64,000 bases of DNA from an uncultured Planctomycetaceae bacterium (GTDB taxonomy: Bacteria > Planctomycetota > Phycisphaerae > SM23-33): contig CAYQJH010000002.1 in assembly GCA_964417755.1 (NCBI GenBank), positions 2,693 through 66,692 of the forward strand. Direction: 5' to 3'. How positions within the stretch are numbered: position 1 is the first letter of the stretch; every line of letters starts with the position of its first letter. A model generated the notes under the pieces. The model searched no databases. It was not told the origin of the DNA and saw only the letters and a program-made list of their open reading frames with translations. Of the stretch, positions 40,958 through 49,779 are shown one piece after another. Made by a program: the position numbers and the translations under genes.

Positions 40958-42547
40958 TTAAGGCTTCTCTTCCTTTGAGTCCTTCTCTGCCTCGGGCTTT
41001 TCAGGCTTGAGGAAGAAATATCGCGACCCGCCGGAGCGGTCCGTTGCACGCACGCGGATGCCGTCGGAGGCCACCTTTGCCGAGGCGGCCTCGGCGAACT
41101 CCTCAGCCGACGCGACCGCCTTGCCGTTGACGCTCGTAATGACCATCCCGGGACGAAGGCCTTGTTCGTCGGCGTTGCTGCCGGGGACCACTTCGGTAAT
41201 CAGTGCGCCCTTTACCGGCCGGGTGAACCCGTACTGCCTGGCCATCTCGGCGGACATCGTTGAGACCTGGATTCCGAAGCTTGACGCACTGTTTGGCTCG
41301 GGCATCGCGCCCTCGGGCCCGATGACAGCAGTCATGTCCGCCGGCTGGGGTTCGAGCTTGACCTTGATCTTCATCTCCTTGCCGTCGCGGTAGAGCGTGA
41401 CTTCGATTTCCTTGCCCGGCTGGTATTCAGCCACCAGGCCACGGAGCTCCTCCACGTCGGCGACCTCTTTGCCCTCGATCGCGGTGATGAAGTCGCCTTC
41501 CTTGATGTCGGCCTTGGCTGCCGGCGTATCCGGCATTATCTGGCCAACAAGCGCCCCCCTGGTCGAGGGCAGATTGAAACTCTTCGCAAGGTCTTCGTTA
41601 ACCGGCTGGATCTGAACGCCCAGGTAGCCGCGAGTCACCTTGCCCTTCTCGATAAGCTGCGCCATGATCGACTTGACCATCTTGGACGGGATCGACAGGC
41701 CGATGCCCTCATTCACGCCGGTCTGCGAGACGATGGCAGTGTTTATGCCGATGACCTCGCCCTTCATGTTCACCAGCGGCCCGCCGCTATTGCCGTGATT
41801 GATCGAGGCGTCGGTCTGAATGAAGCTCTGGTATGTGTTGGGCTCCCCGGTAGAGCGTTTCATCGCGGAGATAATGCCGGCTGTCACCGTCTGCTCCAGG
41901 CCTTCGGGCGAGCCGATGGCCAGCACCCAGTCGCCGACCTGCATGGCATCGCTATCGCCAAGCGGGGCGTCGATCAGGCCCTGGGCCTCGACCTTCAGGA
42001 CCGCCAGGTCGGTCTGCTTGTCGGTGCGAATCCAGGTGGTCTTGAGGCTCTTGCCGCCGGGCAGAACCACCTGCGTCTCGTCGGCGCCGGCTACCACGTG
42101 GTAGTTCGTCAGGACGTACCCATTCTTGGCATCGACGATGACGCCGCTGCCCAGGCCGCGGCGGAGGAATTCGCGAGGCTGGCGCGGCTGAGGCTGGGGC
42201 ATTCGGGGCCTGATGCCGGGGGCCTCGTCGCCGAAGAAGCGGCGGAAGAATTCGTCCATATCGCCGCCCATGTCGGGCGTCATCATGCGAACCTTCTTTG
42301 TGACCTTGACCTCGACGACGGCAGGCTTGAGCACCTTGGCCACCTGCGCGAACAGCGCTGACATGTGGTCCTGCTTGGACATCTCGGCCAATTGGTCGCG
42401 GGCTGCTTCATTGGATGCCTTCGTCGCGGCGTCCTTGGCGGCGGCGTAAGCAATGTTGTAAACCAGGCTTGTGCCGTCCACCACGACGTAGCCAATCATC
42501 GCCAGCACCGCAACGACAAACAACGACACCCATAGCTTGGATCGCAT
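40958..42547 (-). CDS. HtrA/DegP-family periplasmic serine protease with two PDZ domains
   Basis: Catalytic GNSGGPLVN serine motif, trypsin-like domain and two PDZ-like regions. Confidence 0.85.
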   Translation of the reverse strand: MRSKLWVSLFVVAVLAMIGYVVVDGTSLVYNIAYAAAKDAATKASNEAARDQLAEMSKQDHMSALFAQVAKVLKPAVVEVKVTKKVRMMTPDMGGDMDEFFRRFFGDEAPGIRPRMPQPQPRQPREFLRRGLGSGVIVDAKNGYVLTNYHVVAGADETQVVLPGGKSLKTTWIRTDKQTDLAVLKVEAQGLIDAPLGDSDAMQVGDWVLAIGSPEGLEQTVTAGIISAMKRSTGEPNTYQSFIQTDASINHGNSGGPLVNMKGEVIGINTAIVSQTGVNEGIGLSIPSKMVKSIMAQLIEKGKVTRGYLGVQIQPVNEDLAKSFNLPSTRGALVGQIMPDTPAAKADIKEGDFITAIEGKEVADVEELRGLVAEYQPGKEIEVTLYRDGKEMKIKVKLEPQPADMTAVIGPEGAMPEPNSASSFGIQVSTMSAEMARQYGFTRPVKGALITEVVPGSNADEQGLRPGMVITSVNGKAVASAEEFAEAASAKVASDGIRVRATDRSGGSRYFFLKPEKPEAEKDSKEEKP

Positions 42548-42687
42548 GTTCTTCTCCTTTAGTCGATGAGGAACCGTAGCTTAAATGGTTGTTGCCATTT
42601 CTACGGCCCGTATTTTGAAAAGTTTGCGCAAGTCATTCAAGACCCTTAATGATAGGCGGTTGAAGGTGGACGCTAGAGCAGTGCCGC

Positions 42688-42790
42688 AGTTTTGTGCAGC
42701 GGGCGTCTCGCCTGCACATCCTTGGCATGTCAAAATCTGCAGGCACGTGGCGTGGCTTACGGAGCGAAGCGGAGTAACTACGCTTGACCG
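42688..42790. repeat. A-family repeat
   Basis: TGTGCAGCGGGCGTCTCGCCTGCACATC...GGAGCGAAGCGGAGTAACTACGC. Confidence 0.7.
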
Positions 42791-42919
42791 GCAGCATGGT
42801 CGCTCCATGCCTGCGGGACTTCACAGGCCAGGGCAGCCATCGGTCCGGTCTGGTGCAATTACGGGCAAGTATCTACTTATGCGTATATGTTGAGCGTGAG
42901 TGGGGGCGAACCCGCGTCT

Positions 42920-43090
42920 TCATCGCTGGCTGGCGCCTTTATCGATGGCACGAATTTCCTTCTCGATCAGGCGGCAGTTTTCCGAAGGGCGGCTGACGCC
43001 GGCAAAGACGCCGGTGCACTTGCTGATGTACGCGAACGTCGCAATCATCGACAATGCAATGATTAAGGCAACAAATCTTGGTGCAGTCAT
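42920..43090 (-). CDS. Candidate small membrane-anchored protein (56 aa)
   Basis: Strong SD AGGAGAatcc then ATG. N-terminal TM helix FVALIIALSMIATFAYI. Below the track's ORF length cutoff. Confidence 0.35.
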   Translation of the reverse strand: MTAPRFVALIIALSMIATFAYISKCTGVFAGVSRPSENCRLIEKEIRAIDKGASQR

Positions 43091-43381
43091 GGATTCTCCT
43101 GTTAAAACCTCCGGCGGAAAGAAACATACGATTCAGCAAACCAGGATGCGAAATGACCAATAAAATCAGGCCTTTACAGCGGTGGGGGCCTGAATCGAAG
43201 ACGCCGCGGGGAGGCGGCTGTGGCGGCAGGTCTTGAATGTCACTGAATTTGTGGAAATTTCTCTGGCAAAACGCCGGGCGGGACAGTAACCTACTGCCCC
43301 TTGTGGTGGTCCGGAAGTGTTTTCCGGCCCTGCCTTTGTAGGCAACCACGTAAAGATCACAGTTTCATGGGAGAGATTCCG

Positions 43382-43522
43382 ATGAAGAAGATCATTGCCA
43401 GCCTGCTGCTGGGAACGGCCTTCCTGGTTGTCAACGCGGTCGCCGCTGATGCACCGGCCACCAAAGCAACCACCAAGCCCGCAACCGCTACGGCCACCGC
43501 AACCGCGCCGGCCACCAAGTAG
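43382..43522 (+). CDS. Small secreted peptide precursor (46 aa; Thr/Ala/Pro/Lys-rich mature part)
   Basis: SD GGGAGAG 6 nt before the ATG. Signal peptide MKKIIASLLLGTAFLVVNAVAADA followed by PATKATTKPATATATATAPATK. A strong hairpin sits downstream. Confidence 0.4.
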   Translation: MKKIIASLLLGTAFLVVNAVAADAPATKATTKPATATATATAPATK

Positions 43523-43924
43523 TCCGAACTCAAGACAGAATCTTGAACGTTCAAGCTTCGTAGGGGCGGCCGTAAACAGCGGCCGCTCCTACGTAAAAGC
43601 TTCCAAACCACGCAGTTCCCATTTTCTCGCAGATATTTCCCCGCTCCTGAAATGCCCCGCGGCAGCATGGTTGCTCCATCCTCCGGATTTCGTAAACCAT
43701 GGCCGGCTTATCGGCCTGGACAATAATCAAGCCCCGCGGCGCCGGAATCTTGCGCAATCGCGGGGCTTTGACTCAAAGCTATTCGTTGTCGCGGCGCATG
43801 CCAGGACGAAGCGCCCGCCCCTATCTTGACGACGACATCCCCCGGCTCCCGCCGGGGGCCTCCTAACGGCTTCCAGCAGCGCCGCCGCCGGGGGCTTCCT
43901 CGGCGCGCATCAAGTCTCTCAGCA

Positions 43925-44008
43925 CTGTGTCGCGGGCGCGTGCGCCCGCGCGGGCAAGCTCGTGCTACGTAGCGAGCTACTTCGCTAAGTGGCAATGCCC
44001 GCGACACG
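43925..44008. repeat. A-family repeat
   Basis: TGTCGCGGGCGCGTGCGCCCGCGCGGGCAAGCTCGTGCTACGTAGCGAGCTACTTCGC...GCCCGCGACACG. Confidence 0.75.
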
Positions 44009-44032
44009 TTTTCATACAGGCTCTTACGGAAG

Positions 44033-44683
44033 TTACGCCTGGTTCTGCGGCTGGGGCGGTTTGGGCGCTGCGGGCTGGGCTGCCGGGGCCTGCGACGAGG
44101 CCACCTGGGTCGGCGCCGCCTTGGCCGCTTGACCCGCCGGCTTGGCCGGTGATCCCGCCGCTTCTTTTGGTTTGCCGCCTGGGGCCAGCAGCATCGTCAT
44201 GCGCTTGCCTTCGTAGCGGAAGTCCTGCTCGACCTTGGCGATCTCGGACAGGTCAGCCTTGATCTTCGCGAAAACCTTCTTGCCCTCGTCCACGTGAGCC
44301 AGCTCGCGGCCGCGGAAGCGGAGCGTGAACTGCACGCGGTCGCCCCGGCCAAGGAATTCCTTGGCGTGCATGATCTTGATTTCCAGGTCATGGTCGCCGA
44401 TCTTCGGCGTCTTGATCCGGATTTCCTTCAGCTCGGTCTCGTGGCGCCGGCCCTTGGACTTCTGCTCCTTCTTCCGCTGAGCATATTTCCACTTGCCGTA
44501 ATCCATGATCCGGCAAACCGGCGGCCGCGAGTGCGGATCGACCTCCACCAGGTCCAGCCCGACCGCTCGGGCCTTGGCGATGGATTCCTTGACGTCCACG
44601 ATTCCCAACTGGTTGTTCTCGTCGTCAATCAGACGAATCGGGGAGATGCGAATCTGCTCGTTGCATCTAAGATCTTTTGCGAT
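44033..44683 (-). CDS. infC: Translation initiation factor IF-3, non-AUG (AUC) start
   Basis: C-terminal region aligns with E. coli IF3 (GIVxxxEAxxxAxxxGLDLVEVxPxxxPPVCRIMDYGK). The homologous N-terminus (NEQIRISPIRLIDDENNQLG) lies upstream of the first TTG/ATG with no in-frame AUG/GUG. SD TAGGAGT is followed 7 nt later by ATC at 44683-44681. Confidence 0.7.
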   Translation of the reverse strand: MAKDLRCNEQIRISPIRLIDDENNQLGIVDVKESIAKARAVGLDLVEVDPHSRPPVCRIMDYGKWKYAQRKKEQKSKGRRHETELKEIRIKTPKIGDHDLEIKIMHAKEFLGRGDRVQFTLRFRGRELAHVDEGKKVFAKIKADLSEIAKVEQDFRYEGKRMTMLLAPGGKPKEAAGSPAKPAGQAAKAAPTQVASSQAPAAQPAAPKPPQPQNQA

Positions 44684-44742
44684 GGCCGTTACTCCTAAAT
44701 AGAAATAGCTGGTTCGTTTTGGCTGGCCCGCCTTGGGCCGGC

Positions 44743-46743
44743 TTAATCCTTCTTACCTTTGCTTCGGATTTCCTGCTGCAAGGCAGCCAGGAAATCCGCA
44801 ACGCTCGTAGCGCCGCGGTCGCCCTCGGTGCGATGCCGCACCGCCACGGTTTGGCTTTCCTGCTCCCGCTGGCCGATGACGGCCATGTAGGGCACCTTGT
44901 CCAGCGTGCAGCGGCGAATCTTGGCGCCGATCTTCTCGCTGGACTCATCCAACTCGATACGGATGCCGGCGGCCTTGAGTTCCGCAGCCACCTTGCGGGC
45001 ATAATCATTGAACTTCTCGCTGACGCTCAGCACAGCCACCTGCACCGGCGACAGCCACAGCGGAAACGCCCCCGCAAAGTGCTCGATCAGCACGCCGATG
45101 AATCGCTCGAGCGATCCAAACGGCGCGCGGTGCACCATGACCGGCTGATGGGGGCGATTGTCTGCGCCGATATACTCCAGGCCGAAACGCTGCGGCAAAT
45201 TATAGTCAACCTGCACCGTGCCAAGCTGCCACTGCCGGCCGATGCAGTCGTTTACAACGAAGTCGATCTTGGGCCCGTAAAAGGCAGCCTCGCCAGGGGC
45301 CTCGATGTAATTCATGCCAAGCTTCTTGACGACCGAGCGAATGTTGGCCTCGGCCATGTCCCAGTTGCGGGCCTCGCCCACGTACTTGTCGCTGGATGGG
45401 TCTCGCAGGCTCACGCGGACGTGATAGTCACGCAGGTTCAGGGCCTCCAGCACCATCTTGGCCAGGCCCACGCACGATTCCAGTTCTGCCTCGACCTGCT
45501 CTGGCGTGCAGAAGATATGCGCGTCGTCCTGGGTAAAGCCTCGCACTCGCGTCAGCCCGCCAAGTTCGCCGGACTGCTCGTAACGGTACACGGTTCCGAA
45601 CTCCGCCAGGCGCACGGGCAGGTCACGGTACGACCGCTGGGCAGCCTTGTATATCTGTATGTGGTGCGGGCAGTTCATCGGCTTGAGGAGATAGCCCTCT
45701 TCCATGCCGGCATTGGCAGCCTCGGCGCAGCAGGGGCCCTCAGCCATCAGGATCGGCGGGAATTGGCTTTCCTTGTAATACGGGTAATGGCCGCTGGTGC
45801 GGTACATGTCCAGCTTGCCGATGTGCGGCGTGAAGACGATCTGGTAGCCGCGGGCTGAAAGCTCGCTTCGCAGCCAGTTCTCCAGTTCCAGGCGGACGGT
45901 CGCACCCTTGGGCAGCCATAGCGGCAGGCCCGGGCCGACGGCGTCGCTGATGAGGAACAAGCCCAGTTGCTTGCCGATGACGCGATGGTCGCGCTTCTTG
46001 GCCTCCTCCACGCGGGCCAAGTGCTCAGCCAGCGTTTTTTCCTCGAAGAAGGCGGTGCCATAGATGCGGGTCAGCATGGCGTTCTTCTCATCGCCGCGCC
46101 AGTACGCCCCAGCCGTGGTTATCAGCCTGAAGGCCTTGAGCCTGCCGGTATCGGCCAGGTGAGGCCCGCGACACATATCAAGAAACTCGCCCTGGCGATA
46201 GAAGCTGACCTGCGAGACGCCTTCGTTGCGGACGAGGTCGTTGATCATCTCGACCTTGTACTTCTGGCCGAGGTCAGCCATCTGCTTTATCGCCTGCTCG
46301 ACGCTCAGCTCGATCCGCTCGATGGGCAGCTTCTCGGCGACGATTTTGGCCATCTCTTTTTCGATGGCCGGCAGGTCTTCGCTCTTGATCGGCGAGGGCA
46401 GGTCGAAATCGTAATAGAAGCCGTATTGGAAGTCGTCCGTCAGCGCCGGGCCGATGGTGTACTGGACGCCCCGGCCGTAGATGCGCACCATCGCCTGTGC
46501 CAGCACGTGGGCGGCTGTATGGCGAACGATCTCCATCGAGCGACCGTCGCGGTCAGTGAGGATCTTAATCTCGTGCCGGCCGGCGGCCAGCGTGGTGCTC
46601 AGGTCGCAAAGCCGGCCATCGACTTCAGCGGCAATGGCAGCCTTGGCCAGGCGCGGGGAGATATCGCTGGCGACCTGCAAAACGCTGACAGCCGCCGGAT
46701 AATTGCGACAACTGCCATCAGGCAAAACGATAGTAACGCTCAT
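44743..46743 (-). CDS. thrS: Threonyl-tRNA synthetase
   Basis: TGS domain, class II aaRS core and anticodon-binding domain. Start MSVTIVLPDGS. The ORF 5' extension runs through repeat 46779-46832. Confidence 0.85.
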   Translation of the reverse strand: MSVTIVLPDGSCRNYPAAVSVLQVASDISPRLAKAAIAAEVDGRLCDLSTTLAAGRHEIKILTDRDGRSMEIVRHTAAHVLAQAMVRIYGRGVQYTIGPALTDDFQYGFYYDFDLPSPIKSEDLPAIEKEMAKIVAEKLPIERIELSVEQAIKQMADLGQKYKVEMINDLVRNEGVSQVSFYRQGEFLDMCRGPHLADTGRLKAFRLITTAGAYWRGDEKNAMLTRIYGTAFFEEKTLAEHLARVEEAKKRDHRVIGKQLGLFLISDAVGPGLPLWLPKGATVRLELENWLRSELSARGYQIVFTPHIGKLDMYRTSGHYPYYKESQFPPILMAEGPCCAEAANAGMEEGYLLKPMNCPHHIQIYKAAQRSYRDLPVRLAEFGTVYRYEQSGELGGLTRVRGFTQDDAHIFCTPEQVEAELESCVGLAKMVLEALNLRDYHVRVSLRDPSSDKYVGEARNWDMAEANIRSVVKKLGMNYIEAPGEAAFYGPKIDFVVNDCIGRQWQLGTVQVDYNLPQRFGLEYIGADNRPHQPVMVHRAPFGSLERFIGVLIEHFAGAFPLWLSPVQVAVLSVSEKFNDYARKVAAELKAAGIRIELDESSEKIGAKIRRCTLDKVPYMAVIGQREQESQTVAVRHRTEGDRGATSVADFLAALQQEIRSKGKKD

Positions 46744-46778
46744 TGCAGTACCTTTACCGGCATGTTCCTTTGTTTCAC

Positions 46779-46832
46779 CTGTCGCGGGCGAGACGCCCGC
46801 GGTACGCGCGGGCGAGATGCCCGCGACACAGG
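46779..46832. repeat. A-family repeat in the thrS 5' leader
   Basis: TGTCGCGGGCGAGACGCCCGCGGTACGCGCGGGCGAGATGCCCGCGACAC. Confidence 0.75.
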
Positions 46833-47119
46833 TGCACGCACAAAAAGAAAACCGGCACATGACGTTGCCCAGGACTCGCCTGCTCTTGCAGGCGCACGAC
46901 GACGGCCACCGCGGGATATGCCGCAGCGGCCTAACATGTCGTCGTAGTCAAACGAGTCTTTGGCATCGCTCATGCACCGGCTGAACTACACTTCGGCTTA
47001 ATGTTACCAGTATAGCCTATCGGCAAAGTGCCCAAAGTCAATGCAATTTGAGAGTAAACAAATCGCCGCTGAGCCGCTGAGGTCGCAGAGAGAAGCATCG
47101 CTTCTGATCAGTAATCTGA

Positions 47120-47212
47120 TCCTCTCTCTGCGTTCTCAGCGTCTCAGCGGCCGCTGTTGTTGCTTCTTCTGTCGTTCCTGAAGCCTGAAGTCCGGAGCCT
47201 GAAACCCGCCGC
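47120..47212. repeat. C-family repeat (reverse orientation) 3' of glgP
   Basis: Reverse complement is GCGGCGGGTTTCAGGCTCCGGACTTCAGGCTTCAGGAACGACAGAAGAAGCAACAACAGCGGC. Confidence 0.6.
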
Positions 47213-47214
47213 TT

Positions 47215-49779
47215 TCACGACCACCGAATCAGCGCCAAGTCCCGCATCTCGCCCAGCGTCTCGTGGCATGGCATGACGCGAACGGTGTAGCCCGTCAGGC
47301 CGCTGCGATTGCAGGGCATGTTCACGGCATAGCGAACCTTATGCTCGCCGTCGGCGCCCACCTGCTGCATCGGCAACGCCAGGCCGTCGCTCAGTTGCCC
47401 GTCATCGTCCAGCCGGCCGTAATACAGTTCAACCATCACATCACGGGCGGTCAGTTGCTGACCCAGGTCGACCAGGGCCTCCACGCGAATGTCTTTGCCG
47501 ACCTTCGCGCCGCCCTCAGCCATCATGTTGTCGCCGACATTTTCAATCCGCACGCTGCTGAAATTTGCGACGATCTTGCGCTTCCAGTTGGCCAGTTCCT
47601 TCGCCTTGGTCATCTCGCCGGCCATCAGCATCTCGAATCGCTTTGCCGCCGGTGCATAGAACATTTCGGCATACTGCCGCACCATGCGATTGGTGTTGAA
47701 CATGGGAGCCAGGTAATTCATCGCCGACTTCATCTTGCTGATCCAGCCGCGAGGCAGCTTGTCGCTCCCTCGCTCGTAGAACAGCGGAACGACTTCCTTT
47801 TCAAGCAGATCATACAAGGCCTGCGACTCGACCGTGTTCTGGTACTCCAGGTCGTCGTAGCTTTCGCCCGAGCCTATCGCCCAGCCGACGCTGGTGTCGT
47901 ATCCTTCTTCCCACCAGCCGTCCAGAATCGAGACGTTCAGCCCGCCGTTGGCAGCCACCTTCATGCCGCTGGTGCCCGAGGCCTCCATCGGCCGCAACGG
48001 CGTGTTGAGCCACACGTCCACGCCCTGAACAAGATAGCGGGCGACGTTCATGTCGTAGTCTTCCAGGAAGACCACGGATCGCCTGAACGGTTCCTGCCGG
48101 CAGATGTGGATGATCTGGCGAATCAGGTCCTTGCCGGGGTTGTCGCGCGGATGAGCCTTGCCGGCAAAGATGATCTGCACGCGGCGCTGTGAGTTGCCCA
48201 GGAGCTTGGCCAGGCGTTCGGGCTCGGACAAGATCAGGTTTGCCCGCTTGTACGTGGCGAATCGCCGGGCAAAGCCGATGGTCAGGGCCTCGGGGTCGAG
48301 AATCTCCTCAGCCATCGCCAGTTCGCTCGCCCCGGCGCCTCGCTTGGCCAACTGCTGATGCAGGTGTCGCCGCGCGAAGGCCACCAGCCGTTCGCGCCGC
48401 CGCTCGTGCGTCCGCCATAGTTCGGTATCGGGAATCTGGTCGACGCCTTTCCAGGCAGACATTTCCGCCGGCTTTTCGTGCCAGTTGGGGCCCAGGTAGC
48501 GGTCGTAAAGCTCGGCCAGGTCGTGGCTGAGCCATGTCCGCGTGTGCACGCCGTTGGTGATGTGCGTTATGGGCACCTCGTTGACCGGCACGCCCGGCCA
48601 GACATTGGACCACAGCTTGCGGCTGACGGCTCCGTGCAGCTTGCTGACGCCGTTGCGGTAATTGCTCAGCCGCAATGCCAACACGGTGAGGTTCATCGGC
48701 TCGTCTTTGTTGTTAGGTTCCTGCCGGCCCAGGGCCAGGAATTGATCGCGCGTCAGGCCCAGTTGCGACCAGTAGTTTGAGAAGTACTTGTCGATGAGCC
48801 ATGGCTCGAAGGCATCGTTGCCAGCCGGCACGGGCGTGTGCGTGGTGAAGATGCTCGATGCGACGACGGCTTCGCGGGCATCATCGAACGAGACGCCCTG
48901 TTTGGCCATCATCTGGCGGATTCGCTCCAGGCCCAGGAAGGCTGAGTGCCCTTCATTCATGTGGTAGGCGCGTGGCGAAAGGCCAAGTGCCATCAGCATA
49001 CGGACGCCGCCGATGCCCAGGATGATCTCCTGGCGGATGCGCATTTCCTGGTCGCCGCCGTAGAGCTGGGCGGTGATGTGCCGGTCCTCCGGTGAATTCT
49101 CCGGGACGTTGGTGTCCAGCAGGTAAAGCTGGATTCTTCCGATGGTGGCCCGCCAGACTTGCGCGCGGATAGTCCGCTGCGGCAGCTCGACCTCGATGGT
49201 TAGCGGCGCCTTGTCGGCGGTGTGCATCGGCGTGACAGGCATGTTGTGGAAGTCATTGCGAGGGAAGAGCTCCAACTGCCAGCCATCCGCGTTAAGCCGC
49301 TGACGGAAGTAGCCCTGCTGGTACAGCAGGCCCACAGCCACCAGGGGCACGTCCAGTTCCGATGCGCTCTTGAGGTGATCGCCCGCGAGCATGCCCAGGC
49401 CGCCGGAGTAGATCGGCACGCACTCGCTGATGCCGTATTCGGCGCAGAAGTATGCCACCTGCGGCTGTCGGTCGCCGCCGTAGGTCTTGGTATACCAGCC
49501 GGCCCGCTGGACATAGAACTGGAGGTCTTTCTGCACTCGCTGAAGGTGTGCCAGGAAACCTTCGTCAGCGGCCATCTCCAACAGGCGCTTCTGATCGATC
49601 CGCCCGAGCATGGCCACCGGGTTGTGATAGCATTCCTCCCAGCCCTTGGGGTCCAGGCGGCGGAAGAGGTCTTGTGCATCGCCATGCCACGACCACCAGA
49701 GGTTATGGGCGATCTCGACTAAGCCCTGCAAAGCTTCGGGCAAATACGGCTCGACCGTGAACGTTCGTAAAGGGCGCAT
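47215..49779 (-). CDS. glgP: Alpha-glucan (glycogen/maltodextrin) phosphorylase, GT35 family
   Basis: PLP-region motif HMNEGHSAF and ~850-aa length. Confidence 0.85.
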   Translation of the reverse strand: MRPLRTFTVEPYLPEALQGLVEIAHNLWWSWHGDAQDLFRRLDPKGWEECYHNPVAMLGRIDQKRLLEMAADEGFLAHLQRVQKDLQFYVQRAGWYTKTYGGDRQPQVAYFCAEYGISECVPIYSGGLGMLAGDHLKSASELDVPLVAVGLLYQQGYFRQRLNADGWQLELFPRNDFHNMPVTPMHTADKAPLTIEVELPQRTIRAQVWRATIGRIQLYLLDTNVPENSPEDRHITAQLYGGDQEMRIRQEIILGIGGVRMLMALGLSPRAYHMNEGHSAFLGLERIRQMMAKQGVSFDDAREAVVASSIFTTHTPVPAGNDAFEPWLIDKYFSNYWSQLGLTRDQFLALGRQEPNNKDEPMNLTVLALRLSNYRNGVSKLHGAVSRKLWSNVWPGVPVNEVPITHITNGVHTRTWLSHDLAELYDRYLGPNWHEKPAEMSAWKGVDQIPDTELWRTHERRRERLVAFARRHLHQQLAKRGAGASELAMAEEILDPEALTIGFARRFATYKRANLILSEPERLAKLLGNSQRRVQIIFAGKAHPRDNPGKDLIRQIIHICRQEPFRRSVVFLEDYDMNVARYLVQGVDVWLNTPLRPMEASGTSGMKVAANGGLNVSILDGWWEEGYDTSVGWAIGSGESYDDLEYQNTVESQALYDLLEKEVVPLFYERGSDKLPRGWISKMKSAMNYLAPMFNTNRMVRQYAEMFYAPAAKRFEMLMAGEMTKAKELANWKRKIVANFSSVRIENVGDNMMAEGGAKVGKDIRVEALVDLGQQLTARDVMVELYYGRLDDDGQLSDGLALPMQQVGADGEHKVRYAVNMPCNRSGLTGYTVRVMPCHETLGEMRDLALIRWS

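Follow-up and report, generated by a model that had tools for sequence, protein, structure and literature searches.

The infC gene of the 64-kb window, by which we mean the whole stretch of DNA that was analyzed, appears to begin at a near-cognate AUC codon, ATC 44683–44681 on the minus strand, which would be set by an AGGAG core 8 nt upstream and would give a 216-residue IF3. On the evidence of the sequence, we put the probability of this reading at about 0.9. In the corrected gene model, infC runs on the minus strand (44683..44033) from this ATC. Four independent lines, namely protein models, solved IF3 structures, related loci, and existing annotation, agree on where it starts and bear out the initial annotation, which had proposed initiation at AUC. 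The gene is an ordinary infC of an uncultured Planctomycetota (Phycisphaerae-like) bacterium, and its AUC start, although apparently correct, is ordinary too, being already known from the literature and from the annotation of relatives.

The infC start site and its product

Translation of the window places the IF3 reading frame on the minus strand, from ATC 44683–44681 to TAA 44035–44033 (Table 1). The in-frame TAA that closes this frame upstream falls within the 3′ end of thrS, which has its own stop (44745–44743) in another frame. An in-frame stop upstream had been claimed by the initial annotation and does exist, but its distance is 24 codons, with 23 sense codons between, rather than 20. 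In the infC frame of the window, no ATG, GTG, or TTG occurs between this TAA and residue 26 as counted from the ATC; residue 26 is TTG 44608, the Leu of NNQLGIV, and the IF3-homologous N terminus does therefore extend upstream of the first canonical start, as had been noted. From the upstream stop down to the conserved Asn, the only near-cognate codons are the ATC and an ACG (44689–44687); the latter was rejected as a start, since it follows AGGAG by only 2 nt, which is too close. The Shine–Dalgarno sequence TAGGAGT, said to stand 7 nt before the ATC, was confirmed at 44697–44691, where it is followed by the 7 nt aacggcc and then by ATC. It is contained in a thrS–infC spacer of 59 nt (minus strand, after the thrS TAA) that reads ...ctatttctatttAGGAGtaacggccATCgcaaaagat.... 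The first residue, at ATC 44683, is presumably fMet.

Table 1. Features of the thrS–infC region, in window coordinates
Feature	Position	Strand	Remarks
thrS (threonyl-tRNA synthetase)	44743..46860	-	Pfam TGS, tRNA_SAD, tRNA-synt_2b, HGTP_anticodon; 59 nt upstream of infC
In-frame TAA closing the infC frame upstream	44753..44755	-	Frame translation
Shine–Dalgarno core AGGAG	44692..44696	-	Spacer to ATC 8 nt; direct reading of sequence
CC dinucleotide immediately 5′ of start codon	44684..44685	-	ACC is the consensus in relatives; window has GCC (44684–44686)
Proposed start codon ATC (AUC)	44681..44683	-	Sole near-cognate codon at a workable Shine–Dalgarno distance
infC coding sequence (proposed)	44033..44683	-	216 codons plus stop; IF3 with N-domain, linker, C-domain, low-complexity tail
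IF3 N-terminal domain, residues 8–75	44459..44662	-	PF05198 (IF3_N), E = 1.2e-27
First canonical start TTG	44606..44608	-	Pick of the mechanical ORF finder; would truncate IF3
IF3 C-terminal domain, residues 84–168	44180..44434	-	PF00707 (IF3_C), E = 4.3e-29
C-terminal tail, ~47 residues	44036..44176	-	Pro/Ala/Gln/Lys-rich; past the end of the TIGR00168 match (residue 169)

The protein encoded from this codon scores 184.3 bits with the infC equivalog model NCBIfam TIGR00168, for which the cutoff is 60. Residues 4–169 align with profile positions 4–168 of 170, which puts residue 1 opposite the first position of the profile. The two-domain architecture of IF3 is present, with IF3_N, a Lys-rich linker, and IF3_C in order, and R6, N8, I11, R12, P15, R17, L18, I19, and D20 are invariant or near-invariant in 59 homologues. 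Its nearest neighbors among database proteins belong to MAGs of Planctomycetota and Phycisphaerae. When the Protein Data Bank was searched with the infC frame translated from the upstream stop, IF3 chains matched at E ~1e-38, the alignment to the E. coli, G. stearothermophilus, and T. thermophilus chains covered both domains, and nothing upstream of the ATC aligned to the IF3 chains. In the best match, 5me0_Y (IF-3, 171 aa), the alignment begins two residues after the proposed ATC start, with KDFIINEQIR from chain residue 2 opposite KDLRCNEQIR of the window, and the third-ranked chain, 5lmn_X, also aligns from its own residue 2 (KEYLTNERIR). In alignment, a check that the initial annotation had proposed for the IF3 N termini of relatives, both the solved chains and TIGR00168 begin at most one or two residues away from the ATC. 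At the other end of the protein, the tail varies in length among relatives, whose proteins span 170–280 aa.

Start codons, start context, and annotation in related infC loci

Related infC loci were collected from species-representative genomes (80), from metagenome contigs (80), and by exact protein look-up (four), giving 155 unique loci. In each of these the invariant Asn of N-x-x-I-R was located, all in-frame ATG, GTG, TTG, CTG, ATT, ATC, and ATA codons were listed back to the upstream stop, and the candidate starts were scored by the best anti-Shine–Dalgarno match 4–10 nt in front, a heuristic that left a few loci ambiguous. By this measure, the best-supported start among the 155 is ATC in 86, ATT in 31, ATA in 16, CTG in 7, and a canonical codon in ~10, with no Shine–Dalgarno sequence in 5. 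Among the 44 loci with at least 65% protein identity the corresponding counts are 36, 1, 2, 4, and 1, and none is without a Shine–Dalgarno sequence. The single canonical case in this closer set (L082) has an upstream GTG with a longer Shine–Dalgarno-like match, and AGGAG-8nt-ATC is also there. Neither ATG nor TTG is ever the best-supported start at this level of identity. The commonest layout, shared with the window, has ATC exactly 7 codons before the Asn (53 loci); in other related loci the same codon is ATT (14), ATA (5), or CTG (6), and the AUU or AUC for which the initial annotation had proposed to check the homologous position of related genomes is thus found. AUC rather than AUU is the majority infC codon in the Phycisphaerae-like lineage. 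A canonical in-frame start 4 or more codons before the invariant Asn is altogether absent from 83 of the 155 loci.

AGGAG occurs 99 times in the window on both strands, and a lone copy before the ATC is therefore little proof of a start; that dozens of independent relatives have AGGAG followed after 7–8 nt by ATC, and this at the homologous codon, on the other hand, cannot be explained by chance. A search for AGGAG enrichment before long ORFs in the window gave no clear signal, being swamped by long spurious ORFs in GC-rich DNA.

The boundary of the coding sequence was examined in 48 non-identical relatives (57–91% identity) that were anchored on the start codon and scored for conservation at each position. 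Clean three-base periodicity sets in at +1 of the ATC codon, with codon positions 1 and 2 high and position 3 low, whereas within the upstream 40 nt conservation is near nil save for the Shine–Dalgarno block (-13 to -7) and for the three bases next to the codon, -3 to -1. The spacing from the Shine–Dalgarno sequence to the codon is 7 or 8 nt, depending on the locus, and since the frame is not kept, the block is conserved as nucleotides and not as codons. Positions -3, -2, and -1 carry 0.76, 1.26, and 1.07 bits of information, with the consensus ACC and a pattern that is not codon-like. Periodicity that begins at +1, combined with upstream conservation of a non-codon type, is the signature of a translation start and not of an internal Ile.

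Within a Phycisphaerae-like subclade, CTG occupies the homologous codon (L085, L089, L094, L096, L123, and L124), with (A)AGGAG 6–8 nt before it, which suggests, from sequence, that infC may be CUG-initiated in these six. In L085 a GTG two codons upstream of the CTG is an alternative start, and the NCBI protein P0036, which agrees with L096 in N-terminal sequence, apparently starts at an upstream GTG without a Shine–Dalgarno sequence.

The homologous ATC is already annotated as the infC start in public records of two related MAGs. The NCBI protein P0013 (MEKGLRCNEQ..) is encoded at L163:5001 and starts at ATC (...ataggagattagtcATCgaaaag...), and P0059 (MAKNLRCNER..) is encoded at L164:5001 and likewise starts at ATC (...aataaggagacacaaccATCgcgaag...). 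Elsewhere, the annotated N termini of related IF3 proteins are mixed, some truncated at an internal GTG, TTG, or ATG (VDVKES.., MGIVDVKES..), some over-extended owing to an upstream start chosen arbitrarily, and some beginning MAKNLRCNE.. or MEKGLRCNE..; in the over-extended proteins the residue before [AES][KQ][ND]LRCNE is nearly always Ile. Metagenome IF3 N termini (P0001–P0120) are very heterogeneous, with extensions of up to ~60 residues. This heterogeneity of IF3 N termini arises because gene callers disallow ATC, ATT, ATA, and CTG starts. The chief value of the present result lies in annotation: mechanical ORF finders, and several gene callers used on metagenomes, make this IF3 either too short or too long.

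Gene neighborhood and alternative readings of the locus

The genes around infC all lie on the minus strand, in the order glgP (47215–49779), thrS, infC, a gap of ~1.5 kb, and an HtrA-type protease (40958–42547). The mechanical thrS ORF, 705 aa from ATG 46860, has its TGS domain from residue 42, and the relatives are 653–675 aa long; the true thrS start is probably an ATG near 46743 (MSVTIVLPDG..), with 46741–46860 (minus strand) over-extended by 39 codons. The absence of rpmI and rplT from the locus, recorded by the initial annotation, is true, and tblastn with E. coli L35/L20 and with Planctomycetota L35/L20 found nothing significant in the whole 64-kb window; of the Planctomycetota relatives whose downstream sequence is long enough, however, about half are likewise without L35/L20 within 3 kb, a trait typical of the group. 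Because the gene order is only partial in these relatives too, the neighborhood is not a strict criterion for infC. In L164 the order is glgP-thrS-infC-rpmI-rplT-pheS, and in L081, which has 91% IF3 identity, it is glgP-thrS-infC-hemE. Since glgP-thrS-infC is common to the window, L081, and L164, the infC of the window is the orthologous gene at the ancestral locus, and the ribosomal protein genes have moved away within the lineage. The uncoupling of rpmI-rplT from infC is seen in the window and in its two closest relatives, L081 and L082, while other Planctomycetota loci retain thrS-infC-rpmI-rplT(-pheS), and what comes after infC differs among the window, L081, and L082: the HtrA protease past 1.5 kb in the window, URO-D in L081, and hypothetical proteins in L082.

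No convincing long ORF is present in the ~1.5 kb that separate infC from the HtrA-like gene (42548–44032). An ORF of 73 aa at 43301–43522 on the plus strand has a signal-peptide-like start followed by a Thr/Ala/Pro/Lys-rich repeat (..ATKATTKPATATATATAPATK) and has no Pfam match. About 25 nt past the infC stop there is a perfect 11-bp inverted repeat (window 43927–44007, minus strand), with arms GTGTCGCGGGC at 44007–43997 and GCCCGCGACAC at 43937–43927. It encloses further GC-rich palindromes and has no U-tract, and folding of the 3′ flank compared with shuffles is not significant (z = -1.3).

Two other readings of the gene were weighed. Were translation to begin at TTG 44608, or at GTG 44599 as in P0001, the product would be an IF3 of 188–191 residues without the N-terminal 25–28, and the similarity upstream would be a relic. 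Gene callers did pick such starts for this sequence and close relatives (P0001, P0009, P0023, P0028, P0044, and P0096), and TTG 44608 is what the mechanical ORF list gives. Neither codon is preceded by a Shine–Dalgarno sequence, however, and the stretch that would be lost comprises IF3_N profile positions 2–19 together with all nine of the invariant or near-invariant residues named above. In the 48 relatives, moreover, the stretch before TTG 44608 shows conservation of the codon type, with third positions free, from which it follows that the stretch is translated. We regard a truncated IF3 as extremely improbable. It is also very improbable that the window carries a second, diverged infC paralogue while a housekeeping infC with rpmI-rplT sits elsewhere in the genome. 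The missing rpmI and rplT would fit such a paralogue, as would the fact that the window shows 64 kb of the genome only. Against it stand the position of infC directly after thrS in glgP-thrS-infC, the same order being followed by rpmI-rplT-pheS in L164; the lack of downstream L35/L20 in about half of those Planctomycetota relatives whose sequence extends at least 1.5 kb past the gene; and a TIGR00168 score three times the equivalog cutoff. An orthologous infC that begins at AUC 44683–44681 is the reading that we retain.

Probable autoregulation by IF3 and relation to known systems

If infC begins at AUC, the gene may be under feedback control by its own product. By analogy with E. coli, the weak AUC start most likely makes infC translation respond to how much IF3 is present: IF3 would destabilize 30S initiation complexes on the noncanonical start, such that excess IF3 would lower its own synthesis and scarcity would raise it. 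A near-cognate start thus implies that infC translation would fall as free IF3 rises. Destabilization by IF3 of 30S initiation complexes on noncanonical starts is described in earlier work (Butler 1987, Brombach & Pon 1987, Sacerdot 1996, Sussman 1996, cited in PMC5499595), and infC is said to use AUU or AUC and to be autoregulated by IF3 (PMC5499595). On this analogy, IF3 feedback probably operates at the infC of the window as well. The initial annotation had held that AUC in a distant lineage would show the mechanism to be conserved; autoregulation is indeed made likely, but the observation is not new, and a near-cognate start does not in itself show autoregulation. The window adds one more lineage with a near-cognate infC start, is consistent with IF3 autoregulation, and opens no fresh question.

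The AUC start might instead only keep IF3 output low, or be a neutral habit of the lineage, with no IF3-dependent feedback. E. coli (AUU) is the one organism in which autoregulation by IF3 has been demonstrated, and the codon drifts among ATC, ATT, ATA, and CTG in the relatives, as if no single codon were required; a simple limiting of expression, for its part, is called into question by E. coli IF3, which is fairly abundant despite AUU (PMC5499595). Yet AUG, GUG, and UUG are the only codons that IF3 treats as canonical, every other start codon being rejected, and the codons found at the homologous position, CUG, AUU, AUC, and AUA, all stand in the list of noncanonical ones (PMC5499595). A single mutation turns ATC, ATT, or ATA into ATG, and still, among relatives with at least 65% identity, the canonical codons yield only the one GTG of L082, at a locus that also has AGGAG-ATC. 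A spread over AUC, AUU, AUA, and CUG, with AUG one mutation away and the canonical codons almost never the best start in close relatives, is the pattern predicted by selection for an IF3-sensitive start and not by neutral drift. We therefore consider a start without feedback unlikely and favor IF3-dependent control.

The conserved start context allows a further proposal, which we put forward as distinctly unlikely: that AGGAG, a spacer of 7–8 nt, (A)CC, and AUC form a lineage-specific infC context in which (A)CC and the choice among AUC, CUG, and AUA would set the level of IF3 feedback. If this is true, the AGGAG-(A)CC-AUC context would amount to a form of the autoregulatory switch peculiar to this lineage, and would act where infC is separated from rpmI-rplT and hence from L20-mediated control. 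Further RNA-level control found no support from Rfam or folding. The folding of the initiation-region RNA (the thrS–infC spacer plus the start) was no better than that of shuffled sequence (z = -0.8), and a predicted hairpin over the Shine–Dalgarno sequence and start was dropped on that account. An Rfam scan of 42400–47300 at permissive thresholds turned up neither an L20 leader nor a T-box nor any other known RNA element around thrS-infC; two matches to Rfam miRNA models near 47070–47150 were put down to chance. Over the same interval, a scan for σ70-like promoters found none, and terminator-like sites were no more frequent than in shuffles (8 versus 5.0 ± 2.6), none of them just downstream of infC.

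Near-cognate infC starts (AUU, AUC, AUA) are known from many bacteria, and the infC of the window can be set beside them. A C-terminal extension, for its part, has a precedent in Myxococcus xanthus Dsg, an IF3 with an extension of more than 60 residues (Cheng et al. 1994, Kalman et al. 1994, cited in PMC2241858). Like Dsg, the IF3 of the window is extended C-terminally past the core, with a tail that is of low complexity and varies in length among relatives. The M. xanthus dsg gene, too, reportedly starts at AUC. In Listeria monocytogenes genomes the ATT start of infC is fixed (PMC13068326). For Deinococcus and Thermus, ATA starts of infC have been proposed and the mechanism has been called widely conserved (PMC2830850), and in Flavobacterium johnsoniae an ATA start was established by mass spectrometry and mutagenesis (PMC7797042). 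These genes resemble that of the window in having an AUH start that was mis-annotated and was recovered by alignment of the N terminus; they differ in belonging to other phyla and in using another AUH codon, and Bacteroidetes do without Shine–Dalgarno use, whereas the infC of the window has a clear Shine–Dalgarno sequence. Closer to hand are the infC genes of two related MAGs (GCA_012729725.1, JAAYCO010000188.1, and GCA_034189755.1, JAXIHJ010000008.1), which at 70–71% identity share AGGAG, a spacing of 7–8 nt, and ATC but, unlike the window, keep infC-rpmI-rplT(-pheS). Finally, E. coli infC, which starts at AUU (Butler et al. 1987, Brombach & Pon 1987, Sacerdot et al. 1996, cited in PMC5499595 and PMC2830850), belongs to the same family, lies directly downstream of thrS, and has in common with the infC of the window a near-cognate AUH codon behind a good Shine–Dalgarno sequence as well as the lack of a canonical start upstream of the conserved N-domain. 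In contrast to E. coli infC, the gene of the window has AUC rather than AUU, is not followed by rpmI-rplT, and encodes a Pro/Ala/Gln-rich tail of ~47 residues.
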